DNA of 32,000 nucleotides from Flavobacteriaceae bacterium (GTDB lineage: Bacteria > Bacteroidota > Bacteroidia > Flavobacteriales > Flavobacteriaceae), in NCBI GenBank assembly GCA_965224465.1, contig OZ245049.1, forward strand, positions 2,610,001 through 2,642,000, written 5' to 3'. Each line of letters opens with the position of its first letter. Within the stretch, counting starts at the first letter, position 1. A program made the translations under genes and the position numbers. The notes under the pieces were generated by a model that ran no database searches, was not told the DNA's origin, and worked only from the letters and a program-made list of their open reading frames with translations. Of this stretch, positions 3,080-32,000 are shown in pieces.

Positions 3080-4642
3080 ATGCACAAAAAAATCATCCTT
3101 CTAAGCGCTTTCTTACTTGTTTTATTAAGTTGTTCAACAAAAAGTAAAGAGGCTCCAAAACCCAATATCATATATATTTTAACAGATGATTTAGGCTATG
3201 GAGACATTTCATCCTATAATGAAAACAGCAAAATACAAACACCAAACATAGACAAACTCACAGCAGAAGGAATGCAATTTACTGACGCTCACACCTCATC
3301 ATCGGTATGTACACCTACCAGATACAGCATTCTTACGGGGAGATACAACTGGAGAAGCACTTTAAAAAGCAGTGTTCTTACAGGGAAATCTAAGGCATTG
3401 ATTTCAAAGAACAGAACTACGGTTGCCTCCATGCTACAACAAAAAGGATATGAAACTGCGTTTATAGGAAAATGGCATTTAGGATGGGACTGGGCACTAA
3501 AAGACAGCAGTAGATTTGGAGGATCGGGATGGAACGCCAAAGATTTTGAGAATATCGACTTCTCAAAACCCATTACAAACGGACCAAAAGAACTAGGATT
3601 CAGCTATTCTTACGGACATGCAGGATCTTTAGACATGGCACCTTATGTGTATGTAGAAAACGGAATGGTCACCCAGTACCCAGATAGCATCACCGAGAAC
3701 ACAGGGAAATATACTTGGTGGAGAAAAGGACCAACTTCAAAAGATTTTATACATGATGATGTAACGCCTAACTTTTTTAGACGCTCGTTCGCCTATATAA
3801 AAGAACGCGCATTAGAGAAGAAGCCTTTCTTTTTATATTTAGCATTACCTTCTCCTCACACCCCTATTTTACCCACAAAAGAATGGAAAGGAAAAAGCAA
3901 TCTAAACCCTTATGGTGATTTTGTAATAATGATTGACGCCTACATGGGCATCCTAGAAAAAACAATAAAAGAAGCTGGCATCGAAGCCAACACCCTTGTC
4001 ATATTTACGAGTGATAACGGATGCTCTCCAGCAGCTAAAATAGATGAAATGATAGCAAAAGGACATCACTCTAGCTATATATACCGTGGACACAAAGCTG
4101 ATATTTTTGAAGGAGGACACCGCGTACCCTTTATTGTAAAATGGCCCAACCGCATCGAAAAAAACACACTTTCCAACCAAACCATCTGCACCACAGACTT
4201 TATGGCAACTTGCGCCGAGATAATCAACTACACACTTTCCGACAACGAAGCAGAAGACAGCTTTAGTCTCTTACCCTTGTTTGAACAACAACCCTTAAAC
4301 ACTTTATTCAGAGAAGCCACGGTACACCATTCAATCAACGGGAGTTTTGCCATTAGAAAAGGAGATTGGAAATTGATCTTATGTCCAGATTCAGGCGGAT
4401 GGAGTTTCCCAAGACCAGAAAACAAAAAAGCAATAGATTCCTTGCCAAAATACCAATTGTACAATTTAAAAACTGATCCAGGAGAAAAAGAAAACCTTTG
4501 GACTCCAAAAAATAAAATTGCCAACAATTTACAATCACTACTTAGTAAATACATTACAGAAGGAAGAAGTACTAAGGGAAAACCTCAAAAAAATGACCCG
4601 ATTGACACCGAATGGAAACAAATAAGATTCGTTAAAAACTAA
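3080..4642 (+). CDS. Cys-type (formylglycine-dependent) arylsulfatase, lipoprotein
   Basis: The sulfatase signature is SSSVCTPTRYSILTGR (C-x-P-x-R). Metal-binding motifs are LTDDLGYGD and FTSDNG, with conserved GKWHLG. The N-terminus LLVLLSC has a lipobox. Confidence 0.9.
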   Translation: MHKKIILLSAFLLVLLSCSTKSKEAPKPNIIYILTDDLGYGDISSYNENSKIQTPNIDKLTAEGMQFTDAHTSSSVCTPTRYSILTGRYNWRSTLKSSVLTGKSKALISKNRTTVASMLQQKGYETAFIGKWHLGWDWALKDSSRFGGSGWNAKDFENIDFSKPITNGPKELGFSYSYGHAGSLDMAPYVYVENGMVTQYPDSITENTGKYTWWRKGPTSKDFIHDDVTPNFFRRSFAYIKERALEKKPFFLYLALPSPHTPILPTKEWKGKSNLNPYGDFVIMIDAYMGILEKTIKEAGIEANTLVIFTSDNGCSPAAKIDEMIAKGHHSSYIYRGHKADIFEGGHRVPFIVKWPNRIEKNTLSNQTICTTDFMATCAEIINYTLSDNEAEDSFSLLPLFEQQPLNTLFREATVHHSINGSFAIRKGDWKLILCPDSGGWSFPRPENKKAIDSLPKYQLYNLKTDPGEKENLWTPKNKIANNLQSLLSKYITEGRSTKGKPQKNDPIDTEWKQIRFVKN

Positions 4643-13639: not shown

Positions 13640-15025
13640 ATGATTCCAACAAAAAACACCAAGCGAGCAACACGTTTTCTTCAACATTTAACAGGACTTT
13701 GCTTCTCCATTGTACTACTCGTAGTATCGGGATGTTCAAAAGACGACGTAGCACCAGCAAGCATGTCCATTTCCCCTCCAATAAAACAACTCAATTTCTC
13801 CCCCACCATGCACGGAGAAAAATCTACATCTAAAAACATCACGTTAAAATATGCACATTTAAGTGATGCAATTATAATTACAGCCAGTTCAAATTTTGAA
13901 GTATCAATAGATGATACAAATTTTCACCAAAGCCTTTCACTTTCAAAAGCAGAATTACCAGCAAATTCTATTAAAATTTATGTTCGTTTTTCCCCAGAAC
14001 TAAACTTGATAGAGACAGCAATAGGGACCTTAACTATTAGTTCTAAAACTACAGAGAGCATCACACTAAAACTAGAAGGCATCTCCACCCCTAAAACATA
14101 CAACTACACAACATTCAAAAACAAACGCCTTGCATTTGGAAATGGACACAACCAATCTGCTATAGATCAATTTACATTACACGAAGACTTAACAGAAATC
14201 AAAACCATTAAAATGTTTGTACAACTAACCTGTCCAGATGGAGGATGTGACCAATGGGATGTTTATGCCCATGTCCTAATCAAAGAGCAATCTTCAGGAG
14301 ATTGGTATGAACTAGGACGCTTTATCACTCCGTATTGGAATGACAACAGTCAATTAGAACGTGGTTTTGAATTTGATGTCACTGATTTCAAATCGCTTTT
14401 AAACAAAAAAGTAGAACTAAAAATATTCACCGAATGCTGGAATCCAAAAGGCTATAATGTAAGTGTAGATTTTGATTATATAAAAGGAACACCAGACTAC
14501 AGCTATTCCTCCATAACCAAAGTACTCCAATACAACAAAAACTCAATAAGCGGAGTGCCCTACGGAAAAAAACACACCCTAGATTTAACAAAATCCATAA
14601 GCATTCCCTCCAATGCAAAAGCAACTAGCTTACGCACCATAATTTCTGGTTGGGGACACGCAAAACCGTATGACGAAGGAAATAGAGGCTGTGCAGAATG
14701 GTGTTTTAGAACGCATTATATAAAAATCAACAACCAAAAAACTTTCAAACACTATATGGGACCAATAGGTTGCGGAAGCAATCCCGTAAACAATCAAAAC
14801 CCTGGCAACTGGAAAGGAGAACGCGCAGGATGGTGCCCAGGAATGGAAGTACCAACACGTATTGACATCTTAGAGAACGCAATGGCAGGCAGTACTTTTG
14901 ACTTTGAATACGACTTTAAATATTGGAGAAACAACGATCAAAACGGAGAAGCTTACAACGCTATATCAACTTATATTATTGTAAAGAGTAACACGCCTAT
15001 TGACAAAGCTACCGTTACAAACTAA
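13640..15025 (+). CDS. Peptide-N4-(N-acetyl-beta-glucosaminyl)asparagine amidase F (PNGase F) homolog with extra N-terminal domain; predicted surface lipoprotein
   Basis: Residues about 150-461 align, as I recall it, along the whole mature Elizabethkingia PNGase F. Matching blocks are VKTIKMF, CD.WD.YA.V, W.E.GRFITPYW, DVTDFKSLL, GTPDY.YS, QYNK.SI.GVPYGK.HTL, ISGWGHAKPYD, RGCAEWCFRTH, RAGWCPGM.VPTRID and KSNTPI. The positions of catalytic D60, E118 and E206 are conserved (CDQWD, FTECW, CAEW). Lipobox VVSGC (Cys32) is followed by SKDD. Confidence 0.9.
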   Translation: MIPTKNTKRATRFLQHLTGLCFSIVLLVVSGCSKDDVAPASMSISPPIKQLNFSPTMHGEKSTSKNITLKYAHLSDAIIITASSNFEVSIDDTNFHQSLSLSKAELPANSIKIYVRFSPELNLIETAIGTLTISSKTTESITLKLEGISTPKTYNYTTFKNKRLAFGNGHNQSAIDQFTLHEDLTEIKTIKMFVQLTCPDGGCDQWDVYAHVLIKEQSSGDWYELGRFITPYWNDNSQLERGFEFDVTDFKSLLNKKVELKIFTECWNPKGYNVSVDFDYIKGTPDYSYSSITKVLQYNKNSISGVPYGKKHTLDLTKSISIPSNAKATSLRTIISGWGHAKPYDEGNRGCAEWCFRTHYIKINNQKTFKHYMGPIGCGSNPVNNQNPGNWKGERAGWCPGMEVPTRIDILENAMAGSTFDFEYDFKYWRNNDQNGEAYNAISTYIIVKSNTPIDKATVTN

Positions 15026-15758: not shown

Positions 15759-18611
15759 ATGAAAAAAATAAACCTACTTCTCTGTTTAATTTTACTATTT
15801 TCTTGCCAAACAAAAAAAGTAATAACAGACACATCAAAAACTACATCACCCACAGAAGATGTCAAGCCAAGTAAAGACATCCCGCTAGACAAAAACATTA
15901 CTAAAGGAGTACTTAGCAATGGACTTACCTATTACATTCAACACAATGCAAAACCAGAAAACAAACTTGAATTGCGATTGATTGTAAATGCAGGATCTAT
16001 ATTAGAAGACGATGACCAAAGAGGGTTGGCGCATTTTATGGAACACATGAATTTTAATGGAACCAAAAACTTTAAGAAAAACGAATTGGTAGACTACCTA
16101 CAAAGTATAGGTGTAAAATTTGGAGCCCACTTAAATGCTTATACTAGTTTTGATCAAACAGTGTATATTTTACCCATACCTAGTGACGATCCTGAAAAAC
16201 TAGAAAAAGGATTTCAAATATTAGAAGACTGGGCTCACAATGCACTCCTAACAGAAAGCGACATTGATTCAGAAAGAGGTGTTGTTTTAGAAGAACTTCG
16301 CTTAGGAACAGGTGCCAATGAACGCATGTCACAAAAATATTTACCAAAAATAATGTATGGTTCTAAATATGCAGACAGACTTCCTATAGGTAAGAAAGCT
16401 ATTATAGAAAATTTCAATTACGAAAGTTTAATTCGTTTTTACAAGGATTGGTACCGTCCAGATTTAATGGCAGTAGTAGCCGTAGGAGATGTAGATGTAG
16501 CTGTTTTAGAGGCTAAAATAAAAGAACATTTCGGAAGAATCCCTAAGGCAATTGAACCAAAAAAAAGAGAAACTTTTAGCCTTAAAAATCACGACGAAAC
16601 ACTCATTTGTATCGCTTCAGACAAAGAAGCTCCATATGCCGTAACAAGCATCTATTACAAAGACGAACAAGACAGCAAAGCATTAATTAGCACAAATGAC
16701 TACAGAAACTCTTTGATAGAAGGTTTGTTTAGTCAAATGATAAGCAATAGACTCGACGAATTAAAAAACAGTCCGACCCCTCCATTCCTGTTTGCATCTG
16801 CAAGTCACAGCAACACGATGGCAAGAAACAGAAAAGCCTATCAAGGTTTTGCGGTATCTGGACAAAAAGAACAACTAAAAGCACTCCAAACTTTACTAGA
16901 GGAAAACGAACGCGTAAAACAATTTGGATTTACCCAAGGCGAATTAGATAGAGCAAAGAAAAGAACCCTTGCCGCCATGGATCTCGCTTTCAAAAACAAA
17001 GACAAAACAACTTCTGCACGTATTGCGGGACAGTTTGTAAACAATTTCCTTTCACAAGAAAATTCACCAGGAATCACTTGGAAAAACGATTTTTGTAAAC
17101 GCACCTTCCCTGGTATTACACTAAAGGACGTGAGCTCTCTAATTCATAAATACCTCAAAAAAAACAATAGAGTTATTGTACTAACAGGACCTATTGTACC
17201 TGAAGAAGAACAAATTACAGTTGCACAAATTCAGAAAACTTTAGACAATAGTACCACAGCAACCCTAAAGGCATACGAAGACAAAGAAGTTGCCAGTTCA
17301 CTGATTTCTAAAGCACCAAAACCAGGAACCATCATCTCAAAATCAAGCAACAGTAAATTAGGAACGCAAAGCTTTACCCTAAGCAACGGACTTAAAGTAG
17401 TGTATAAAAAAACTGATTTTAAAAACGATCAAATCCTTATGGAAGGTGTAAGCCTAGGAGGACAATCCCTCTATTCCGACGAAGAGTACCACAGCATAGG
17501 ATTTGCTAACGGCGCACTTACTGAAGCAGGTATCAATGGATTTTCTAAAATAGATTTAAACAAAATGATGGCAGGTAAAATAGCCAGAGTGAGACCATAT
17601 ACAGGAGGAATTACAGAAGGAGTTTCTGGAAGTAGTACTCCTAAAGACCTTGAAACCATGTTTCAATTAACCTATTTGTATTTTACCAAATTAAACAAAG
17701 ACGACAAAACATACCAAGGGTTTATCAATAAACAAAAAAGTGTAATTCCGAGACTTCTATCCAGTCCACAAATGTATTTCAGAAAAGAACTGGGCGATTT
17801 TTTAAACCAAGGAAATCCGCGATATTTAGGATTCCCTACGTTAAAATCCCTAGATCAAAGCAATTATGATCTCGCCTTTAAAAAATACAACGAACGTTTT
17901 TCTAATGCTGGAGATTTTGTATTCTACTTTGTAGGAACCATCAACGAAAAACAACTGATCCATTTAGCGACTACCTATTTGGGAAGTCTTCCGGGAAACA
18001 ATATCAAAGAAACGTATAAAATACCTAGTTTCCGTTCTTTAAAAGGCATGCATAAAAAAGTAATAGCAAAAGGACAAGACCCAAAAAGTAGTGTTCAAAT
18101 AATATTCCAAGGAGAAACAGTTTATGACAAATATGAAGCTGCCTCGATAAATGCATTAGGAAAGATTTTAACCATAAAACTGATTGAAAACTTAAGAGAA
18201 AAAGAAGCAGGAGTGTATGGCGCAAACGCAGGAGGTTTTATATCTAAAGTACCCTATGGGAAATACAATTTCAGAATTTCTTTCCCTTGTGGACCAGAAA
18301 ATGTGGATATGTTAACCGCAGCAGCTTTAAAAGAATTAAAAAACATTATTGATAATGGGCCTTCTGACAAGGATTTAAACAAGGTAAAAGAAGCAAAACT
18401 ACTTACATACAAAGAAAACATAAAGAAAAATTCGTATTGGATAAATTCTTTTAAATCTTCGTATATCAACGATAGAGACCCGGCATTGATCCTTGAAAAA
18501 ACCAAAGCAATTAATTGGTTGAATAAAAAATCCATTCAAGATGTTGCTAAGAAATACCTTAATGGAGATTATATTTTAGCCATTCACAATCCCGACAAAA
18601 AAGAAAAGTAA
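15759..18611 (+). CDS. M16-family (pitrilysin/insulinase-like) zinc peptidase, double-length, lipoprotein
   Basis: The inverted zinc motif HxxEH is present in GLAHFMEHMNFNG, with a downstream E in VVLEE. At 950 aa it is consistent with fused active and inactive M16 halves. Lipobox LLFSC. Confidence 0.9.
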   Translation: MKKINLLLCLILLFSCQTKKVITDTSKTTSPTEDVKPSKDIPLDKNITKGVLSNGLTYYIQHNAKPENKLELRLIVNAGSILEDDDQRGLAHFMEHMNFNGTKNFKKNELVDYLQSIGVKFGAHLNAYTSFDQTVYILPIPSDDPEKLEKGFQILEDWAHNALLTESDIDSERGVVLEELRLGTGANERMSQKYLPKIMYGSKYADRLPIGKKAIIENFNYESLIRFYKDWYRPDLMAVVAVGDVDVAVLEAKIKEHFGRIPKAIEPKKRETFSLKNHDETLICIASDKEAPYAVTSIYYKDEQDSKALISTNDYRNSLIEGLFSQMISNRLDELKNSPTPPFLFASASHSNTMARNRKAYQGFAVSGQKEQLKALQTLLEENERVKQFGFTQGELDRAKKRTLAAMDLAFKNKDKTTSARIAGQFVNNFLSQENSPGITWKNDFCKRTFPGITLKDVSSLIHKYLKKNNRVIVLTGPIVPEEEQITVAQIQKTLDNSTTATLKAYEDKEVASSLISKAPKPGTIISKSSNSKLGTQSFTLSNGLKVVYKKTDFKNDQILMEGVSLGGQSLYSDEEYHSIGFANGALTEAGINGFSKIDLNKMMAGKIARVRPYTGGITEGVSGSSTPKDLETMFQLTYLYFTKLNKDDKTYQGFINKQKSVIPRLLSSPQMYFRKELGDFLNQGNPRYLGFPTLKSLDQSNYDLAFKKYNERFSNAGDFVFYFVGTINEKQLIHLATTYLGSLPGNNIKETYKIPSFRSLKGMHKKVIAKGQDPKSSVQIIFQGETVYDKYEAASINALGKILTIKLIENLREKEAGVYGANAGGFISKVPYGKYNFRISFPCGPENVDMLTAAALKELKNIIDNGPSDKDLNKVKEAKLLTYKENIKKNSYWINSFKSSYINDRDPALILEKTKAINWLNKKSIQDVAKKYLNGDYILAIHNPDKKEK

Positions 18612-19121: not shown

Positions 19122-20378
19122 TTACCTAAACATCGCCTCACTATTCCCGTTCCCTACACCGATCACAGCATCGTATCTACTCCCAAATTTTCGATAATAC
19201 ACAAGCACTGTATATTGGTTTTCGGTTTGAAAGTAAGAACCATCTATATCTCTGTTGCTCAAAACACCGAATTTATTTTTGGTTAAAAATTGATAATTCA
19301 CAAAGCCTTGCTTGAGAAGAATTTTTACTTCGTACAATTGAGAATCATCATTGTATATCATTCTATTCTCATCGTTTAATTGCCAGTTATTAAAAGCACC
19401 ACTTACATATATTTCCTTCCCTTCTAAATCCTCCAAGGACTCTAAGTAAAAATGCACCCAAGAATAATCAGCTTCTAATTCGGTTCCTTTCCCATTGATA
19501 TTACGCACTACAAAATTACCATTCACATCAGGGAAATACGTATAAGGCTTTTCTATCCGTTCCTGGTTGGTATATAAATAGGTATGGTAAATCTCTTCAC
19601 CCAGTTCTACATTGGCAATAAATACTGTGGCATTTCTGATGGATTTGTTCTCAAAATTCAAAAACTCATTTCCTGCCCAAAAACTAGCTTTCTGATTGTA
19701 TTTATAAATCAATTGATTGTTTTTAAAATACATCGGCACAAATCCACCAATAGCGGTTTGCCAATTCTGATTTTGCAACACGGCTATTTTTATTTCTTCT
19801 TTAGGGTTATTGATTTGCACATTGGGATAATGAATCACAAAATTCACCGATTGTTTTTCTTGAATTGTTGCAATATCGTTACTACGCACAACCTGCACCC
19901 CTACATCCACAATAGATTGATACAACACAAATCTACGCGTAAAAACAACGGTATCATCATCATCAAAAACAGACAATACAAAGTTGCCACTTATTTTTAT
20001 TTGCGTCACTTTATTGGGCAAGGTAAATTGATAATGCGTATAATATTGCAAGGTATTAAACGAGTTTTCATAGCTACGAATGTGATCTTCTTCATAGCCA
20101 ACAATAAACTCGGAGGTCAACAAATCAGATTTTGTCCAATCGTACTTATAATGTTCAATTTTATAATAGTAATCTTTTTCATCTGCTTCAATATCGTCAA
20201 ACGAAATCACTAAAGGCGTTCCTAGTTTAGCAATGGGCGCATAGACATTTGCAATGGCAGGTCTAAAAATTACGGTTTTAATATATTCGGCATCATTCTC
20301 TTCAATATAGGATTGGGCAGAACCCAATTGCAAAAATAAAACAGAAAAAAACGAAGACAGTAGATATTTATAATTCAT
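19122..20378 (-). CDS. DUF5103-like secreted protein (candidate type IX secretion system plug-protein family)
   Basis: 418 aa with a signal peptide (FSVLFLQLGSAQS). LVISFDDIEADEKDYYYKIEHYKYDWTKSDL resembles, as I recall it, the DUF5103 signature. The CDS call is solid. The family assignment comes from memory. Confidence 0.6.
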   Translation of the reverse strand: MNYKYLLSSFFSVLFLQLGSAQSYIEENDAEYIKTVIFRPAIANVYAPIAKLGTPLVISFDDIEADEKDYYYKIEHYKYDWTKSDLLTSEFIVGYEEDHIRSYENSFNTLQYYTHYQFTLPNKVTQIKISGNFVLSVFDDDDTVVFTRRFVLYQSIVDVGVQVVRSNDIATIQEKQSVNFVIHYPNVQINNPKEEIKIAVLQNQNWQTAIGGFVPMYFKNNQLIYKYNQKASFWAGNEFLNFENKSIRNATVFIANVELGEEIYHTYLYTNQERIEKPYTYFPDVNGNFVVRNINGKGTELEADYSWVHFYLESLEDLEGKEIYVSGAFNNWQLNDENRMIYNDDSQLYEVKILLKQGFVNYQFLTKNKFGVLSNRDIDGSYFQTENQYTVLVYYRKFGSRYDAVIGVGNGNSEAMFR

Positions 20379-20562: not shown

Positions 20563-21912
20563 ATGTCACAAGACATTCGAATCAAAAAAGGCTTAACTAT
20601 TAAGCTTACTGGAGACGCAGAGGAATCAATTTCTGACGCACCACTTTCGAAGGTCTTCGCAATTAAACCAACCGATCTTTTGGGAGTAACACCCAAATTA
20701 TCAGTACGTGTTGGGGATAAAGTAAAAGCAGGAACTGTTTTATTTTATTCAAAAGCTGAGGAGCGCATCAAGGTGCTAGCCCCAGTAAGCGGAGAAATTC
20801 TTAATATTGAACGTGGAGCAAAGCGAAAAATTTTAACTGTACAAATTAGTACAGATGCAGCAATCGAACACATCGATTTTGGCGCAAAGAACCCCAAAGA
20901 TCTTACTTCTGACGAAGTAAAAGCACAGCTATTAGCAGGTGGATGTTGGCCTTTTATCCAACAACGCCCCTATGATGTGATGGCAAATCCAGACGAATCG
21001 CCAAAAGCGATATTTGTATCTGCCCTCGACACAGCACCTTTAGCAGGTGATGTAGCTTTTGCTTTGAACAATCAGAAAGAAGCTTTTCAAGTTGGTATTA
21101 CGGCCTTGTCCCAGTTGACAACAGGCAAAGTAAACCTAGCTGTTTGTGGAAAATCTGTATCGTTTTTAAACGATATAAACGATGCTGAAATCATAAAAGT
21201 TACGGGGAAACATCCAGCAGGAAATGTTGGAGTACAAATTCACCATGTAAACCCCGTAAACCAAGGAGAACGTGTTTGGACCGTAAACCCACAAGATGTA
21301 GCTGTAATAGGAAACTTGTTTTTAACAGGTAAATTTGAACCAAAAAGGGTGATTGCCCTTGTAGGATCTCAGGTAACATCTCCAAAATATTACAACATGT
21401 TACAAGGGGCTAATCTTGAAGCCTTTTTAACTGAAAACATCACGGTAGAAAACAGTCGAATAATCAACGGAAATGTATTGTCTGGTACTCAAGTTGCTAT
21501 AGACGGATATTTAGATTTTAAATCTACATCTATCTCGGTAATTCCAGAAGGAAACCACCACACACTATTTGGATGGGCTCCGTTTGCAGGATCAAAGAAA
21601 TTCAGCATGTACCGTTCTGCTTTATCATTCTTATCGCCTAACAAAAAATACACTTTAGACACCAATTTAAATGGAGAAGAGCGTGCTTTTGTAATGACAG
21701 GTGAAATGGAAAAAGTATTGCCAATGGATATTTTACCAATGCACTTATTAAAAGCGGCAATGGTGGGAGACATCGAAAAGATGGAAGCTTTAGGAATCTA
21801 CGAAGTAGCTCCAGAAGATTTCGCTTTGATCGATTATTCAAGTTCTTCAAAAATTGAAGCACAGCAAATTATACGAACCGCATTAGATTTAATGGTTAAA
21901 GAAGTAGGATAA
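20563..21912 (+). CDS. nqrA: Na+-translocating NADH:quinone oxidoreductase subunit A
   Basis: 449 aa. The N-terminus IRIKKGLTIKLTG is typical of NqrA. It is the first gene of a contiguous nqrABCDEF array. Confidence 0.9.
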   Translation: MSQDIRIKKGLTIKLTGDAEESISDAPLSKVFAIKPTDLLGVTPKLSVRVGDKVKAGTVLFYSKAEERIKVLAPVSGEILNIERGAKRKILTVQISTDAAIEHIDFGAKNPKDLTSDEVKAQLLAGGCWPFIQQRPYDVMANPDESPKAIFVSALDTAPLAGDVAFALNNQKEAFQVGITALSQLTTGKVNLAVCGKSVSFLNDINDAEIIKVTGKHPAGNVGVQIHHVNPVNQGERVWTVNPQDVAVIGNLFLTGKFEPKRVIALVGSQVTSPKYYNMLQGANLEAFLTENITVENSRIINGNVLSGTQVAIDGYLDFKSTSISVIPEGNHHTLFGWAPFAGSKKFSMYRSALSFLSPNKKYTLDTNLNGEERAFVMTGEMEKVLPMDILPMHLLKAAMVGDIEKMEALGIYEVAPEDFALIDYSSSSKIEAQQIIRTALDLMVKEVG

Positions 21913-25069: not shown

Positions 25070-26362
25070 ATGAGTATTATTGTAGCAAGTGTCGTATTTT
25101 TCTTAGCGATCATATTAGTTTTAGTAACTATTTTATTAGTAGCAAAGGCCAAGCTGCTGCCATCTGGTAAAGTAAAGATTACAATCAACGGAGAGAAAGT
25201 AATAGAAGTAGAATCTGGAAGTTCTTTATTGACAACCTTAGGAAACGAAAAGATATTTTTACCATCAGCATGTGGTGGTGGAGGTACCTGTATCCAATGT
25301 GAATGTCACGTAAATAGTGGAGGTGGAGACGCCTTACCTACAGAAACGCCACACTTTACACGAAAAGAATTGGCAGCTGGAGCACGTTTATCTTGTCAGG
25401 TAAAAGTAAAAGGAGACATGGATATTACCATTCCAGACGAAATTTTTGGAATTAAGAAATGGGAAGCAACTGTAGTTAGTAACTACAATGTAGCATCATT
25501 TATCAAGGAATTTATAGTTGAATTACCCGAAGATATGCCTTATAAAGCAGGTGGATATATCCAAATTGAAATTCCAGAAACGGAAGTTAAATTTAAGGAC
25601 ATGGACATTACTGCACATCCTCAAGATCACCCAGGAGAACCTCAAAAGTTCCAAGCAGAATGGGATAAATTTGGATTATGGCCTTTGGTAATGAAAAACG
25701 GAGAAAGTGTAGAAAGAGCATATTCTATGGCTTCCTACCCTGCAGAAGGACGTAAAGTTATGCTTAATGTTCGGATTGCAACACCTCCTTTTGACAGAGC
25801 TAAAAACGGATGGATGGATGTAAACCCTGGGATTGCATCATCGTATATCTTTAACCAAAAGCCAGGAGACAAAGTAATTGTTTCTGGTCCTTATGGAGAA
25901 TTCTTTATCAATGAAGATTCTGATGCTGAAATGATTTATGTAGGTGGTGGAGCTGGTATGGCGCCAATGCGTTCTCACTTATACGAATTGTTCCACACCA
26001 TGAAAACAGGTCGTAAAGTATCGTACTGGTACGGAGGTCGTTCGAAACGTGAGCTATTCTACTTGCACTATTTTGAAGCTTTAGAGAAGGAATTCCCTAA
26101 CTTTAAAATGCACTTAGTATTAAGTGAACCAATGAAAGAAGACAACTGGAAAGTAAAAGGAGATATTGATGCAGAAGGGGATGGATTCGTAGGATTTGTT
26201 CACCAATCATTAATTGATAACTATTTGAGCAAACACGAAGCTCCTGAGGATATCGAATTCTATTTCTGTGGACCACCACTAATGAACCAAGCCGTTGTTA
26301 AAATGTGTGATGACTTTGGTGTACCACCAGAGAATGTACGTTTTGATGATTTTGGAGGATAA
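25070..26362 (+). CDS. nqrF: Na+-NQR subunit F
   Basis: N-terminal TM helix, 2Fe-2S ferredoxin motif [12 protein letters not shown]...C, FAD-binding RAYSMAS and NAD-binding GGGAGMAP. Confidence 0.92.
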
Positions 26363-26661: not shown

Positions 26662-27108
26662 ATGAAATCAGAAAAAATCCTAAAAATACTACTTGTAGAA
26701 GACAATCCTTTTGAAGTATTTAAGTTTAAAAAAAATATTAATTCCTTAAACATAGATTGTCATGTAGCACATACAACACATGGAAGACAAGCTATAGAAA
26801 GTTTACAAACCGAACATTTACCGGATCTTATTTTATTAGACCTAGAGATGCCTAAATTACGCAGTTTACAATTCTTGAAAATCATAAAAGAGTATGAACA
26901 TCTAAAAAACATACCCACTTTTATACATGCTTCACATATCGGACAACAAGAGCTTTCGAAATGTTTCAAACTTGGTATTGCAGGATTTATTATTAAAACC
27001 GCCGTTCACAAAGATTATATTCAAGACCTAGAAGACACATTAACCACATGGTATAACAAAATAACATTACCTGAAGTGATCCAAGCTCGAATGTTGTGGA
27101 ATTACTAA
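26662..27108 (+). CDS. Stand-alone response-regulator receiver domain (CheY-like)
   Basis: ILLVEDNPFE, DLILLDLEMPKL (phospho-acceptor Asp context) and a conserved Lys in GFIIKT. At 148 aa it has no output domain. Confidence 0.8.
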   Translation: MKSEKILKILLVEDNPFEVFKFKKNINSLNIDCHVAHTTHGRQAIESLQTEHLPDLILLDLEMPKLRSLQFLKIIKEYEHLKNIPTFIHASHIGQQELSKCFKLGIAGFIIKTAVHKDYIQDLEDTLTTWYNKITLPEVIQARMLWNY

Positions 27109-27403: not shown

Positions 27404-28520
27404 AATTCAAGTCACAAACGCAACTTTTAGTTAAATAATAATTGTTCCATTACAAATATAGGGTTTTCGTATTTATGTCTCTTCCTAGGTCTGTTATTTA
27501 ATTTTGTTTCTACCTCTTTGATTCTTTGATCTGTTAGGTTTGTAAAGTCACTTCCTTTGGCAAAATATTGTCTAATCAAACCATTTAAATTTTCGTTAGA
27601 TCCTCTTTCCCAAGAGTGATATGGATGCGCAAAAAAGTAATCAATACATAAATTTTCTGCAACCTGCTCATGGCCTGCAAATTCTTTTCCATTATCAGCT
27701 GTTATAGTATGTAGATAAGGCTTCCAGTCTTCTAATATTTCATTGATAGCTTTGGTGACAACAACTGCTTCTTTAGAGCTTACTTTTTTCATTTTAAGCA
27801 TTCCAGAAGCTCTATCATTTACGGTAAGTATGGCTTGATTATGGTTTTTACCTATGATTAAATCGACCTCTAAATCTCCAAATCGATTTCTTTGTTCAAC
27901 AACTTCAGGTCGTTGTTCTATACTAATGCGATTCTTTATAACCCCTCTAGAATCCTTTGATGAGCCACGTTTTCTATATCTCCTTCCCTGTCTGCGAAGG
28001 TGTGTATGTAAATCACCATCATTCCTCTTGTCTTCCCTAATATGCTGATATATACGCTCAATAGACACCGTTTCTTTACCTTGTTTTTTTAGGATACCAA
28101 CTACTTGCTCAGGACTATAATCGTCTCGCAATAACAATTCTATTGCTTGTTGAATATCTTCTGTAAAGCGTTTTCTTTTAGGCTTTTCTTTATGACGTTT
28201 AGCATACTTTTTTTGGGCTAATTCATGCTTGTAAACTCCATTTCTTTTGTCTGAATTACGCTTAATCTCTTTGCTAATAACAGACTTGTCTTTTCCTATA
28301 GCAGCTGCTATCTCAACCTGTTTATAACCTTGTTTTAACATGCAGCAAATTGTGTATCTTTGTGCTTGGGTGATGTGTTTCATACAACTTCTTTTTTCGA
28401 GATTTGAGACCGTAAGATACATATCCATCAAGACAAGAAAGGTAGGTTTTCCTACTTTTCTGTTTTGAAAATATAACCATCATAGAATCAAATCGAAAAG
28501 TTGCGTTTATTAGTTGAATT
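27404..28520 (-). mobile_element. IS30-family insertion sequence (about 1.1 kb) with 25-bp imperfect terminal inverted repeats
   Basis: IR at 27404-27428 is aattcaagtcacaaacgcaactttt. The reverse complement of 28496-28520 is aattcaactaataaacgcaactttt, matching 22 of 25. The IRs enclose one IS30-type transposase ORF whose stop codon lies inside the left IR. I could not identify a clear target-site duplication. Confidence 0.8.
27427..28383 (-). CDS. IS30-family transposase
   Basis: N-terminal HTH (ITQAQRYTICCMLKQGYKQVEIAAAIGKDKSVISKEIKRN). DDE core blocks are FGDLEVDLIIGK, ITADNGKEF, FAHPYHSWERGSNENLNGLIRQYFAKG and LNNRPRK. Start set to the ATG at 28383 (MKHITQ...). Confidence 0.92.
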   Translation of the reverse strand: MKHITQAQRYTICCMLKQGYKQVEIAAAIGKDKSVISKEIKRNSDKRNGVYKHELAQKKYAKRHKEKPKRKRFTEDIQQAIELLLRDDYSPEQVVGILKKQGKETVSIERIYQHIREDKRNDGDLHTHLRRQGRRYRKRGSSKDSRGVIKNRISIEQRPEVVEQRNRFGDLEVDLIIGKNHNQAILTVNDRASGMLKMKKVSSKEAVVVTKAINEILEDWKPYLHTITADNGKEFAGHEQVAENLCIDYFFAHPYHSWERGSNENLNGLIRQYFAKGSDFTNLTDQRIKEVETKLNNRPRKRHKYENPIFVMEQLLFN

Positions 28521-28526
28521 TAAGAA

Positions 28527-28625
28527 TATAAATAGTTTGTACTTACGTTTTAGCGTTACTAAAAACTAAAACGATAAGTTAGGGCTACCCTTGTAGTTTT
28601 TTGGCATTAAGCTCATTCTAGGAAT
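28527..28625 (-). repeat. Dispersed intergenic repeat, copy J (reverse orientation, truncated, diverged)
   Basis: tataaatagtttgtacttacgttttagcgttac...aacgataagttagggctaccc...ttaagctcattctagg is collinear with the reverse complement of the long consensus (tataaatagtttgtttttcgttttaacgttg...aacgatagctaaggctatcc...ctagctagaacg). The part expected to its left is replaced by the IS30 end. Confidence 0.6.
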
Positions 28626-29014
28626 AACCCCAAAAACACATCTATTAAATACGCATAACCGTTGTGTCATAAGCGCACCGTATCCATAGCAATTATTGTT
28701 TATTTTGTTAGACTAAAAAAGAAATCCAAGTGAAAACCTTTCTTAATTCATGCTTTTAAAAGGCAAAAACAGGAATCTCCCCTTTAGAACAAGCATATAA
28801 ACAAAATTAATCAGAATAAAAACATAATAACACATACGCGTATAACATTATTTTATATATTGATCAACGCTTAAAAACAGATACGCACTAACAACAAGCC
28901 TTCCCTACATAGTGAACTAGATGGATATGCCATCAAGTTTAGAATTGTTATTGTGAGAATATTACAAAGCATTGACATACTCAAACAACTTAATACAACA
29001 TATAACAAAACAAC

Positions 29015-29710
29015 ATGGTAAAAGCAATATTAATAATAGATGGAAAAGAAGTAAACGTACGTTGGTTTACTATCAATTTTAATCAAGGAGCAAATCCTAA
29101 CGGAAGACCTTCACAAATCCCGGTATTTATAGGTTTTAAACTAATTATAGAAACCAGAAAAGACCTAAACCTTACTGAGTGGGCCTTTTCCTCTAGACAA
29201 ACAAAACAGATAGTATTACATATTAGTTCCGTTATTGTGGGAGGCAAAACAAGAAAAATATTTTTCTATGACTGTCATCTTGTAAACTGGAAAACAAATT
29301 TTTCTTCTACAGGATCAGATCCAATGACGGAAACTTTAGAAATCACCTGTGCGGGTGTTGAAGATTCTAACTCGTTTGGTGTGTATTCTGCCTCTTGGAG
29401 AACTACTTTTAAAGAAGATACTGTTGAACCGACAGTTTTAGAACGGCCAGAACCCACCTTTTTAGGGTATCATTTTGAAAATGAAAACAGAGAAAAATTA
29501 GAACAAGAAAAAATACAAATCAATCAAAATATTGTTTTAATAATTGAAACAGAAAATGGAGAGAATGATACTATATCTATTAACTTAAACGATAACAGGC
29601 TAGATTTTGAATATAATGGTGTAGTTTTAATAAATGACACTTTAAATGAAGTTATAATAACAGGACAACAAACAGAGGTTATTCTAAAAGCTGTTGCACA
29701 ACAAAATTAA
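29015..29710 (+). CDS. Type VI secretion tube protein TssD/Hcp-like (Bacteroidota type) with about 100-aa C-terminal extension
   Basis: Residues 1-132 follow the Bacteroidota TssD pattern: A.L.IDGKE..V..F...F.Q....NGRPS, then II.ET..D..L.EW, FYD..LV......F.S.G..PM.E.L.I.C. Residues 133-231 have no counterpart in canonical Hcp/TssD of about 130 aa. Confidence 0.8.
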   Translation: MVKAILIIDGKEVNVRWFTINFNQGANPNGRPSQIPVFIGFKLIIETRKDLNLTEWAFSSRQTKQIVLHISSVIVGGKTRKIFFYDCHLVNWKTNFSSTGSDPMTETLEITCAGVEDSNSFGVYSASWRTTFKEDTVEPTVLERPEPTFLGYHFENENREKLEQEKIQINQNIVLIIETENGENDTISINLNDNRLDFEYNGVVLINDTLNEVIITGQQTEVILKAVAQQN

Positions 29711-29711
29711 A

Positions 29712-31028
29712 ATGATGACAGAGCAAAAACGTACTAATGGTATTGCTTCTTTCGGTAGTGGTAGAGGAAATACAATGAGAATTGAGTTTCCTGAAGTCGA
29801 TACTTCTTTGAGTTTTATTGCAAAACTAGAAAGACTAGATACTTATAAAGGAGAGTTTGGTTTCGATTGGATGCGAGATAATTATTTAGACAAAGAAGAT
29901 GGAACAAAAGGTATTTGCGAAAATCAAGATGCCTTAAAAAAAGAATACACACCTACAAAAATTCATGACCAAGATTATTTTGTGCCTTGGCTTAGTATGT
30001 TTCCAAATCAAGAAAATGTAATTCTTAAATTAGTGATTACAGAAATTCAAGGTAGTGTAGAAGATACTGATATTATAAAATTACCACCAAAAAGTGGAAT
30101 AATATTTGAACCTAACCAACTAAAAGTGTCAGAAGCCAATGGTAAAAAAATAACTATAATTTGTGAATCGCCTTTAAGTAAAGATATTACCATTTCATTA
30201 TTAGATAAATATGATAAGAAGGTTGGCATGGTTAATATTGTTAAATGTAAAGATGCAATTAGTTTACCTTTAAATTTGGTTTTGGTTTCTGAAAGCAGAC
30301 ATATCAATAAGCTAAAAGAGAAGCATCAAAACACAATGCTTACACTAGAGAGTAATCTTCAAAATAACTCATTTAATCAAGCTTTTATAAAGCCTTACTT
30401 TACAAATGATCTAAATACTGCTCCAATTATTTCTTTAGATAATTTTAGTGAAAATGATTATAATGGAACTAATTTGTCAAAAAAAGGGAAGGTAAAAATA
30501 CTTGAAAAGTTTAAAAATGATGTTGTACAAAAAAAAGGAATTTCATTATTCCTATTAGCAACAAATCATGAAAGAAATCAAGCAGGTGATTCTCAAATAG
30601 TTCCTCTTAATTGGAGCAATGTGTTTATCTATATAAATGTTGGGACAGATTCTGATTACGTTCATGAAATAGGTCATGCATTAGGTCTCACGCACAGCTT
30701 TAAAGAGGGTAAAGACAAGGTGTATTATAGAAATCAGATAGGAGAAGGAAAATTAAATGAATTTAAAACTAAATTAGAGAGTCAAATAAAATATTTGGAT
30801 AAAAATTTAAGCACAGAAAATAGAAAGAAAGTTAATAAGAATATTGAGGTTTTAAATAAGAATATTAAAAAATATCAAGAAAGGTTTTCAATAGGAGACA
30901 AAAACCCGTATAAATTTAACAAAAGTGGTACTACAAATTTTATGGATTATTTTAACGATGCTAAAGATTTTTACAGATGGCAATGGAACGTAATGTATCA
31001 AGAAGTAAAAAAATACTATTCTATATAA
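29712..31028 (+). CDS. Putative secreted toxin with C-terminal metzincin-like zinc metallopeptidase domain
   Basis: HEIGHALGLTH (nt 30663-30695) fits HExxHxxGxxH. TTNFMDY (Met codon at 30942) is a pappalysin/M43-like Met-turn candidate. I do not recognise the N-terminal 190 aa or so. I prefer the start at ATG 29712, 2 nt after the Hcp stop. ATG 29694 (a 17-nt overlap) is also possible. Confidence 0.7.
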   Translation: MMTEQKRTNGIASFGSGRGNTMRIEFPEVDTSLSFIAKLERLDTYKGEFGFDWMRDNYLDKEDGTKGICENQDALKKEYTPTKIHDQDYFVPWLSMFPNQENVILKLVITEIQGSVEDTDIIKLPPKSGIIFEPNQLKVSEANGKKITIICESPLSKDITISLLDKYDKKVGMVNIVKCKDAISLPLNLVLVSESRHINKLKEKHQNTMLTLESNLQNNSFNQAFIKPYFTNDLNTAPIISLDNFSENDYNGTNLSKKGKVKILEKFKNDVVQKKGISLFLLATNHERNQAGDSQIVPLNWSNVFIYINVGTDSDYVHEIGHALGLTHSFKEGKDKVYYRNQIGEGKLNEFKTKLESQIKYLDKNLSTENRKKVNKNIEVLNKNIKKYQERFSIGDKNPYKFNKSGTTNFMDYFNDAKDFYRWQWNVMYQEVKKYYSI

Positions 31029-31031
31029 ATT

Positions 31032-31466
31032 ATGAAAAATATACTATATATCGCTTTATTATTGGTCTCCTGTTCAAAAAAAATAACTATTCAAACAATT
31101 AAACCAATACCTTTAATAGAAGAACACTTAGATAGCAGTAAAAAACTATATTTATCAGGAGAAATATATCCAATTCCAGAACCAAAACAATACTATACTT
31201 CTGTTCTGTTGTTACATTACAACGATTCTACTAAAATATTCGCAAGTTCTGATTTTGATGGTAGGTTTGCATTTTATGATTTTAAACCTGAATTAATCAA
31301 TAAAGAATCTTACATATATGCAGTAAATAAAGGATGCATAGCTAAGAGAATTTTATTTGATAGTTTAAAAAATCCAATACGTATTTATTTAGTACAAGAT
31401 TCAATAAAGGGGCTTTCTTATGATGCGTATATTGATCTTCTTATTAAAAATCGACCTATTGATTAA
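31032..31466 (+). CDS. Small lipoprotein, candidate cognate immunity protein
   Basis: Lipobox LLLVSC at the N-terminus, 144 aa. It starts 4 nt after the stop of the metallopeptidase gene. I recognise no family beyond a weak resemblance to carboxypeptidase-regulatory-like beta-sandwiches (DGRFAFYDF). Confidence 0.55.
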   Translation: MKNILYIALLLVSCSKKITIQTIKPIPLIEEHLDSSKKLYLSGEIYPIPEPKQYYTSVLLLHYNDSTKIFASSDFDGRFAFYDFKPELINKESYIYAVNKGCIAKRILFDSLKNPIRIYLVQDSIKGLSYDAYIDLLIKNRPID

Positions 31467-31555: not shown

Positions 31556-32000
31556 ATGGATAATTTTGTTGATTTATATACCGATTATTTGATAAGTTCA
31601 AGTTCTTATACTACAGCAACAGGAATGTCCCACTTGCTTTGCATAAAACATGATAAAATAACAAGAGCATTGTCAACAGGTGTTTACGACAGTAAATTTC
31701 TATGGAAAACGGCAAAACCTTATATTGAAGAATTGACACAATCAAAAGAAACCGTTATTTTAAGTTTTGATGATTCTATACAAGAAAAACAATATACAAA
31801 AGAAAGTGAACTTAACACTTGGCATTTTGACCACGTGTTTGGGAGGTCTGTAAAAGGAGTTAATTTTCTAACAGCTTTAATAGAAGTAGCCGGTATGCGT
31901 TTGCCTTGTAGTGTGGAGTTTATAAAGAAAGACCTTTGGGTAACCGATAAAAAAACAGGAAAACAAAAGCGTAAAAGCAGCAAAACCAAGAATGAATTAT
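31556..32000 (+). CDS. DDE transposase (IS4/IS701-like), 5' part, truncated by window end
   Basis: Not in the ORF track because it has no stop in the window. My manual translation from ATG 31556 is MDNFVDLYTDYLISSSSYTTATGMSHLLCIKHDKITRALSTGVYDSKFLWKTAKPYIEELTQSKETVILSFDDSIQEKQYTKESELNTWHFDHVFGRSVKGVNFLTALIEVAGMRLPCSVEFIKKD... The blocks DLYTDYLI....TATG.S.LL....HDKITR.LS and FDDSI.EK.YT.E.....WH.DH...RSVKG.N.L match, as I recall it, a common bacterial DDE transposase family. Confidence 0.7.
   Translation, partial: MDNFVDLYTDYLISSSSYTTATGMSHLLCIKHDKITRALSTGVYDSKFLWKTAKPYIEELTQSKETVILSFDDSIQEKQYTKESELNTWHFDHVFGRSVKGVNFLTALIEVAGMRLPCSVEFIKKDLWVTDKKTGKQKRKSSKTKNEL

Follow-up and report, generated by a model that had tools for sequence, protein, structure and literature searches.

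We have analysed a window of 32,000 nucleotides (positions 2,610,001 to 2,642,000 of contig OZ245049.1, assembly GCA_965224465.1) from a member of the Flavobacteriaceae, focussing on three adjacent genes close to its right end; unless a locus is named, coordinates refer to this window. They encode proteins of 231 (ORF1, 29015–29710, + strand), 438 (ORF2, 29712–31028, +) and 144 (ORF3, 31032–31466, +) amino acids. The initial annotation had described them as co-directional and tightly packed, with gaps of 2 and 3 nt. The arrangement and the second gap (TAA-ATT-ATG) were found as described, whereas the junction between ORF1 and ORF2 (TAA-A-ATGATG) leaves a single nucleotide. ORF2 has an alternative TTG start at 29694, and its database copy (P0003) begins one methionine further on. 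Inside the block, promoter-like and terminator-like sites did not rise above the shuffled expectation. The region upstream of ORF1 (28521–29014, +) contains no ORF of 60 or more amino acids and presumably holds the promoter; sigma-70-type sites were not enriched there, the consensus used in the scan being one that does not cover Bacteroidota promoters. The genes had been read as tube protein, toxin and immunity gene of a type VI secretion system (T6SS), and this reading has held up, by the TssD profile match and fold of ORF1, by the fusions in the ORF2 family, by the pairing of ORF3 with its toxin and by sister cassettes that adjoin genes of T6SSiii, the Bacteroidota-type system. We are highly confident that the three genes are a TssD-effector-immunity module of T6SSiii.

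The first 126 residues of ORF1 (29015–29392, +) form a TssD/Hcp tube-protein core. The suspected relationship to TssD was borne out by the hidden Markov model (HMM) search, in which residues 2–116 matched Pfam TssD (PF17642) far over the cut-off (E = 4.3e-24, 85.3 bits against 25.8). The AlphaFold2 model, built from 34 homologues, has the Hcp beta-barrel fold, and the top Foldseek matches, with TM(target) of 0.79–0.81, were the Bacteroides fragilis Hcp-VgrG-PAAR complex (8gra_B), Flavobacterium johnsoniae Hcp1 (6bdc) and B. fragilis Hcp5 (7yw0). ORF1 is thus a true TssD/Hcp by HMM and by fold, and assembly into hexamers and tubes, together with T6SS-dependent secretion, can be predicted from this identity. 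A linker follows (residues 127–147, ‘...WRTTFKEDTVEPTVLERPEP’; 29393–29455, +), with predicted local distance difference test scores (pLDDT) of ca. 51–63, and below 50 at residues 131–134, which marks the boundary between the conserved and the divergent parts of the paralogues. The remainder, residues 148–231 plus the stop codon (29456–29710, +), is a C-terminal beta-sandwich of ca. 85 amino acids, which we call ext and propose as an effector dock. It was modelled with pLDDT 85–92 as six strands (148–155, 172–180, 186–190, 196–200, 209–214, and 219–228).

The ext had been suspected to lie outside recognised families, and scans of Pfam and NCBIfam indeed gave no match. We also considered it as a toxin domain and rejected this, as it matches no toxin motif or family and the toxin is the next gene. 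Used alone as a query against 1.84e9 representatives, ext retrieved 103 clusters, in nearly all of which it occupied the extreme C-terminus of proteins of ca. 230 amino acids, or of fragments of them; the exceptions were a TssD with tandem ext, a non-TssD protein with tandem ext and giant repeat proteins that were matched only in part. The domain is therefore essentially restricted to the C-terminus of TssD. The tandem copies are found in a TssD of 363 amino acids (P0164) and, behind an N-terminal non-TssD region of ca. 310 residues, in a protein of 492 amino acids (P0156), so that ext can be duplicated and can join another carrier.

ORF2 starts with a short leader (residues 1–29, …NGIASFGSGRGNTMRIEFPEV; 29712–29798, +) that we propose to be a docking tag. 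In the AlphaFold2 monomer model the leader is disordered, with two strands of 2 residues each and pLDDT below 50, and many leaders of the family can be read by eye as strand-turn-strand, often followed by a proline. Behind it comes a beta-rich N-domain (residues 34–193; 29811–30290, +; pLDDT ca. 85–95) with an invariant Y-x-G-E-F-G-F-D-W-M-R motif. The N-terminal half of the toxin had been thought to match no known family, and our searches agree, with no match in the PDB either by sequence or by fold (Foldseek). Among the ORF2 homologues listed, the N-domain is preceded by TssD, by DUF4280 or by no recorded N-terminal domain, and it is possibly a prodomain or a targeting domain.

The C-terminal alpha/beta domain of ORF2 (residues 195–438 plus stop; 30294–31028, +) is a metzincin-like catalytic domain that carries the zinc motif HEIGHALGLTH (HExxHxxGxxH; 30663–30695, +) and a putative Met-turn, N-F-M-D-Y (30936–30950, +). 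Residues H318, E319, H322, G325, H328, N409, and M411 are invariant in the alignment of 19 sequences. Around the zinc motif the Pfam models of M10, M43, M66, reprolysin and astacin matched only below threshold (M10, 19.0 bits against 24; M43, 16.9 against 23; M66, 15.8 against 20.6), and NCBIfam Mep72 scored 20 against 645. By structure, the Foldseek matches were the catalytic domains of ADAM22/33/8, atrolysin C and BmooMP (E 8e-5 to 1e-3), with TM(target) of 0.44–0.52 for isolated catalytic-domain entries of the adamalysin, ADAM and snake-venom metalloproteinase type, and a profile search of the PDB reached serralysins at E = 0.002 over the zinc-motif region only. With the motif and fold of the metzincins, yet below every Pfam and NCBIfam peptidase threshold, ORF2 would be an enzyme of this clan that belongs to no defined family. 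It resembles the M12B adamalysins/reprolysins, M10B serralysins and M12A astacins in the HExxHxxGxxH motif, the conserved downstream methionine and the adamalysin-like fold, and differs from them in falling under all gathering thresholds and in having a family-specific N-terminal beta domain of ca. 160 residues (GEFGFDWMR).

What connects this enzyme to secretion is the architecture of its relatives. We found 72 homologues of ORF2, many of which have an N-terminal fusion to TssD (560–680 amino acids) or to the PAAR-like DUF4280 (ca. 600 amino acids). The closest, P0004 from Tenacibaculum maritimum (64% identity), is fused to TssD, as is a paralogue in the source genome of the window (P0014). 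Because of these Rosetta-stone fusions, the ORF2 family can be regarded as T6SSiii cargo, and the features found in its sequence mark ORF2 as a metzincin-like protease of a T6SSiii effector family, with protease activity as the prediction. Another relative, from Bernardetia sp. (P0069, 453 amino acids), has the N-domain and the metzincin domain behind a lipoprotein-like signal peptide (MKIILYILLFLMCISCQSC), with neither leader nor fusion, which suggests that the enzyme family is also exported by a Sec/lipoprotein route in some Bacteroidota.

ORF3 encodes a lipoprotein with a signal peptide (…LLLVSC-SKK) and the lipobox L-V-S-C, whose Cys14 is encoded at 31071–31073 (+). It had been listed as another protein outside recognised families, and searches of Pfam, NCBIfam, and PDB sequences were indeed empty. 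Only two other clusters were found in 5.8 billion proteins. A homologue with 61–62% identity lies directly downstream of the P0004 toxin in two T. maritimum assemblies, so that the pairing of toxin and lipoprotein genes is conserved between the window and this species, and the lipobox cysteine is aligned in both full-length copies (P0138 and L001; the fragment P0139 begins past it). The small proteins encoded behind distant catalytic variants, e.g., in Tenacibaculum sp. A30, are unrelated to it. As homologues of ORF3 occur only downstream of the closest relatives of ORF2 and diverge in step with them, ORF3 is likely to be a periplasmic immunity protein for ORF2, and a lipoprotein in this role would imply a target in the periplasm or envelope. 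The residues that follow the lipobox cysteine are basic, and thus differ from what we take to be the acidic export signal of Bacteroidota surface lipoproteins. In T. maritimum the pair is set among type I restriction-modification, GmrSD, MmeI-like, and AbiEii genes, in islands (L001, 1–9107; L002, 1–6091 and 11517–17387) that represent a defence or variable region and not a T6SS locus.

The architecture of ORF1 is not a peculiarity of this genome. Extended TssD proteins of ca. 227–236 amino acids form 64 clusters, from Psychroserpens, Olleya, Tenacibaculum, Tamlana, Bizionia, Aquimarina, Ulvibacter, and others, and the ca. 230-residue form is a conserved family of the Flavobacteriaceae. We scanned TssD loci with one genome per species and obtained 51, of which 24, all outside the source genome, had an extended TssD; a scan of metagenomes yielded just 3 short loci. 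The next ORF begins within −11 to +12 nt of the extended TssD in 23 of the 24 loci (145 nt in the other) and encodes 268–694 amino acids (a piece of 107 in L027). These downstream proteins belong to diverse families and are mostly unannotated, with 11 of 13 lacking a Pfam family at the thresholds used, and the third position is usually taken by a small ORF. All six standalone ORF2-type toxins examined, the one in the window included, are located directly behind an extended TssD, and those whose context was read have the leader. The initial annotation had looked to other Flavobacteriia for co-occurrence of the three genes and for proximity to T6SS loci. Both were found, since extended TssD, effector and small ORF recur as a set, and T6SSiii genes adjoin them in Ulvibacter (L032), where those for ClpV, TssB and TssC (E = 5e-242) come after the cassette and those for TssF and TssE lie on the other strand, and in Algibacter lectus, where TssC is found 1.7 kb downstream (L057). 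Most loci with an extended TssD have no recurrent neighbours, and an orphan placement is the rule for the family rather than something special to the window. Besides at least five paralogues of the extended TssD, the source genome contains two or more further toxin paralogues, one of them fused to TssD; it is therefore likely to have a live T6SS, with a T6SSiii apparatus presumably encoded elsewhere in the genome.

Two groups of loci illustrate how these cassettes vary. In two Tenacibaculum species (L054, 9223–12098; L055, 9223–12149) the same chromosomal site is occupied by nearly identical extended TssD of 261 amino acids, and the toxins (466 and 481 amino acids) differ in their C-terminal part; in the former locus three extra small ORFs (61, 141, and 80 amino acids) come after the downstream gene of ca. 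235 amino acids. The difference looks like a replacement of the cassette in place. The loci of two TssD-fused metzincins (L019, 12044–14850; L020, 11261–13973) have downstream tandem arrays of up to four paralogous ORFs of ca. 185–214 amino acids, a type that counts 17 members in seven loci (L013, L016, L019, L020, L022, L025, and L030). These are probably arrays of immunity genes.

The relationship between ext and the leader of the next protein was examined by pairwise identities in 29 loci, taking as leader the first 30 residues of the downstream protein and representing the effector body by its own first 90 residues. Identity of ext followed identity of the leader (Spearman 0.44, Mantel p = 0.0005), while the TssD core followed neither ext (Spearman −0.04, p = 0.63) nor the leader (−0.14, p = 0.96), and ext was weakly correlated with the effector body (0.14, p = 0.012). 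The leader motif of the window, G[IVL]A[SR]F..G.GNTM, is present in five other loci, and these are exactly the five best ext matches to ORF1 among 30 (Mann-Whitney p = 2.7e-4), whereas core identity does not separate them (p = 0.82). Among the five there are two TssD core subtypes, which are 24% and 59–69% identical to ORF1, and two kinds of effector body unrelated to each other (the GEFGFDW-metzincin and an ‘AHMNIG.ALMPFM’ type). For two of them, from Psychroserpens (L063 and L064), the leader type was predicted from ext before the downstream ORF had been read, and both predictions were correct. Along similar lines, five extended TssD paralogues of the source genome have cores that are 84–98% identical and ext that are 21–54% identical; between ORF1 and P0076 the figures are 98% for the core and 31% for ext. 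The direct toxin fusions (P0004, P0014, P0053, L036, and L041) have neither ext nor leader, and in the fusions to TssD and to DUF4280 the linker passes straight into the N-domain. Four TssD-metzincin fusions of 628–680 amino acids (L013, L019, L022, and L025) have an extra beta-rich spacer of ca. 80 residues (residues ca. 150–270; ‘ITNINWIHPETKE…LEIKEQW’), followed ahead of the N-domain by a segment ‘…LQIVPPPKVLVxFR’. We considered this spacer as a remnant of ext and leader, but the likeness is one seen by eye and was not significant against the ext HMM, and we do not claim it.

All this leads us to regard the cassette as an auxiliary effector module of T6SSiii working as a split Hcp-effector, which is the best explanation overall and a probable one. 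Through its conserved core, ORF1 would be built into the Hcp ring or tube, where it would probably be a minor subunit beside a canonical TssD. The ext of ORF1 would bind the leader of ORF2, ca. 25 residues and beta-hairpin-like, as a non-covalent tether that replaces the peptide bond of the TssD-toxin fusions; from the pattern of sequence conservation we lean slightly towards such docking. On firing, the 438-residue metzincin-like protease would be delivered into a neighbouring Gram-negative cell and would attack a target in the periplasm or cell envelope, and the ORF3 lipoprotein would protect sibling cells by neutralising it. The ext, leader, toxin and immunity gene would be swapped together behind a near-invariant TssD core, and such exchange could give rise to several paralogous loaders with different cargo in one genome. 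More tentatively, ext and leader may represent an undescribed, interchangeable docking pair, an address code that would put large unrelated cargo on an otherwise invariant Hcp. With the same reserve, this would be a third way of loading, intermediate between covalent fusion to Hcp and capture in the lumen, used by the T6SSiii of marine Flavobacteriaceae. No description of a docking domain on an extended TssD was found in the literature searched, coverage of which was incomplete. As a kind of cassette this is ordinary, an auxiliary T6SSiii effector-immunity module; what appears new is the effector-immunity family and the evidence, drawn from comparing sequences, for a modular device that docks cargo to Hcp.

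Several observations weigh against this interpretation. There are no T6SS core genes among the other 23 ORFs scanned in the 32 kb of the window, as the initial annotation had noted. The ext and the leader are encoded ca. 100–300 bp apart, and linkage contributes to their correlation; the missing correlation of core with ext and the weak one of ext with the effector body argue against pure linkage, without excluding it. One covalent TssD-effector fusion (L037) contains an internal spacer related to ext (HMM E = 7e-5), and ext may therefore have some role other than docking. A cargo of ca. 50 kDa together with ext exceeds, by our estimate, the lumen of one Hcp ring. Besides, PMC13323088 argues for a limit of one extended Hcp in each ring. 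Given cargo of this size and a single extended Hcp per ring, the candidate topologies are a heterohexamer, an arrangement over several rings and the tip of the tube.

The alternative that survives best, although we consider it unlikely, is classical loading in the Hcp lumen, with an N-terminal hairpin of the effector binding the inner surface of the TssD ring, as for Hcp2-Hcp3 of Bacteroides or Hcp3 of Pseudomonas, and ext acting as spacer, cap or stabilising decoration. Siphophage tube proteins with C-terminal Ig-like domains exist, and the top BFVD match is a major tail protein of 264 amino acids aligned over its full length; phage major tail proteins and ORF1 alike have a C-terminal beta-sandwich behind the fold of a tube protein. 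In phages these Ig-like domains are outside the tail tube, which is where, we infer, the sheath of a T6SS would be. The ext-related spacer of L037 is a further point for lumen loading, as is the fact that this mechanism is documented in the nearest studied systems (PMC13035841, PMC13213661, PMC13323088). Effectors of B. fragilis load by an N-terminal pair of antiparallel beta-sheets that co-evolves with a minor Hcp (PMC13035841), and in the same species heterohexamers of Hcp2-Hcp3 or Hcp1-Hcp2 carry Bte1, Bfe1, and LysM (PMC13035841, PMC13213661). The likeness to the window is considerable: both are T6SSiii, the hcp gene is directly upstream of that of the cargo effector, and the effector starts with a short loading module, putative here (in Bacteroidales of beta-strands, conserved in structure and divergent in sequence). 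There, loader and loading module co-evolve as lock and key; here, ext and leader co-vary. However, in Bacteroides specificity is found on a hypervariable inner surface of Hcp, within the main T6SS locus, whereas the present family combines a near-invariant Hcp core with a variable appended beta-sandwich of ca. 85 residues in modules scattered over the chromosome. Specificity of the former kind was not found in our set, with cores 84–98% alike against 21–54% for ext, and with core and leader uncorrelated. An inner-surface determinant would predict the opposite of what we observe, namely paralogues that keep the same core despite different ext, leader types that core identity does not track, and the same ext and leader type on a core of just 24% identity.

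A split Hcp-effector has its nearest covalent counterpart in the Hcp-ET proteins, in which, as presented in PMC13213661 and PMC11148199, toxin domains are joined to the C-terminus of Hcp (Ma et al., 2017). ORF1 resembles them in being a TssD with a C-terminal extension, and the toxin family includes true TssD fusions (P0004, P0014, L036, and L041), but the extension of ORF1 is no toxin, and the toxin forms a polypeptide of its own. In functional terms, the cassette would resemble an Hcp-ET divided over two chains, with ext and leader joining them. Similarly, the polymorphic toxins (Rhs, CDI) have a conserved N-terminal delivery part and a swappable C-terminal end with its immunity gene; in our case the swapped unit crosses a gene boundary, comprising ext, leader, toxin and immunity gene.

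Less probable still is that the cassette is a stranded remnant, a module flanked by insertion sequences (IS) in a genome that lacks, or no longer has, a working T6SSiii and kept at most for the protection given by ORF3. The lack of core genes in the 32 kb and the IS elements on both sides would fit this idea. On the other hand, the three ORFs are intact and tightly coupled, the source genome has retained its five or more extended TssD paralogues and two or more additional toxin paralogues, and orphan placement is typical even in genomes whose other copies adjoin core genes.

We give even less credit to the possibility that ORF2 is an ADAM-like protease directed at a host or other eukaryote, with ORF3 not being an immunity protein, although its fold is nearest to adamalysins and snake-venom metalloproteinases and its closest relative comes from a fish pathogen, T. 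maritimum. The lipoprotein gene is conserved directly behind the toxin gene, its divergence keeps pace with that of the toxin (61–62% and 64% identity, respectively), and distant catalytic variants have unrelated genes downstream, which is the signature of cognate immunity. Moreover, an antibacterial T6SS metallopeptidase with immunity is known: VgrG2b of Pseudomonas aeruginosa has a C-terminal zinc-metallopeptidase that acts in the periplasm of the target, with the periplasmic immunity protein PA0261 encoded next door (PMC6899460). The window has the same combination of a predicted zinc-metallopeptidase gene and an adjacent putative immunity gene. ORF2 belongs to another sequence family, without detectable homology to VgrG2b past the HExxH region, and would have another carrier, VgrG2b being a VgrG spike fusion of a proteobacterial T6SSi.

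Finally, ORF1 and ORF2 could in principle be the halves of a frameshifted TssD-toxin fusion, a pseudogene, as they lie in different frames 1 nt apart, a TTG-initiated ORF2 would overlap ORF1 by 17 nt and fused homologues exist, but the family data effectively refute this: more than 50 clusters of extended TssD of ca. 227–236 amino acids share the same end point, all 6 standalone toxins examined (426–481 amino acids, with conserved leaders) come behind an extended TssD, and the direct fusions hold neither ext nor leader, so that the pair in the window is no disrupted version of such a fusion.

The selection and transport of cargo by T6SS tubes are under active study, and structures of Hcp-effector complexes first appeared in 2026 (PMC13323088, PMC13035841). 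Should ext and leader truly be a docking pair, this would explain how one conserved tube protein carries many large and unrelated toxins, and why the modules are scattered and mosaic. It would also provide a simple bioinformatic rule, an extended TssD and then a leader, for finding new T6SSiii effectors, a short transferable tag with which engineered cargo could be loaded, and a loading route open to re-programming through the exchange of ext-leader pairs. The metzincin and its lipoprotein would in turn be a new family of effector and immunity protein, one that the fish pathogen T. maritimum also has.

Both mobile elements noted at the flanks are present. Upstream there is a complete IS30-family insertion sequence (27404–28520, −), with a transposase ORF (27427–28431) that matches the Pfam families HTH_38 and rve and with inverted repeats of 25 nt at its ends (27404–27428 and 28496–28520, 88% complementary). 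It is only a flank and has no part in the function of the cassette. Downstream, the 5′ part of a DDE transposase gene similar to IS701/DDE_5 (31556–32000, +), likewise only flanking, is cut by the end of the window and matches PF13546 DDE_5 under the cut-off (E = 7.5e-5, 22.8 bits against 27). As the upstream element is of the IS30 type and the downstream one of the DDE_5 type, that is, of two different families, a composite transposon was ruled out, and a repeat search of the window found no long direct or inverted repeats bracketing the cassette. A search of the window against Rfam gave no match.

The other ORFs scanned are housekeeping genes, such as nqrA-F, a sulfatase, an aldehyde dehydrogenase, an M16 peptidase, and a plug protein of the type IX secretion system (T9SS). 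NqrF, NqrA, the M16 peptidase, and the sulfatase are each a singleton cluster at 90% identity among ca. 15 billion proteins (ORFs found as singletons include those at 25070–26362, 15759–18611, 20563–21912, and 3080–4642), so that no near sequenced relative of the source genome is represented in this collection. A stand-alone response-regulator receiver protein of 148 amino acids without an output domain (26662–27108, +) is encoded in the interval from the nqr operon to the IS30 element. A PNGase F-like protein with the N- and C-terminal domains of N-glycanase is encoded at 13640–15025 (+). The T9SS plug protein is an ORF of 418 amino acids (19122–20378, −) that matches the first domain of this family (PF17116) with E = 2e-40, which indicates that the organism has the type IX secretion system of Bacteroidota.

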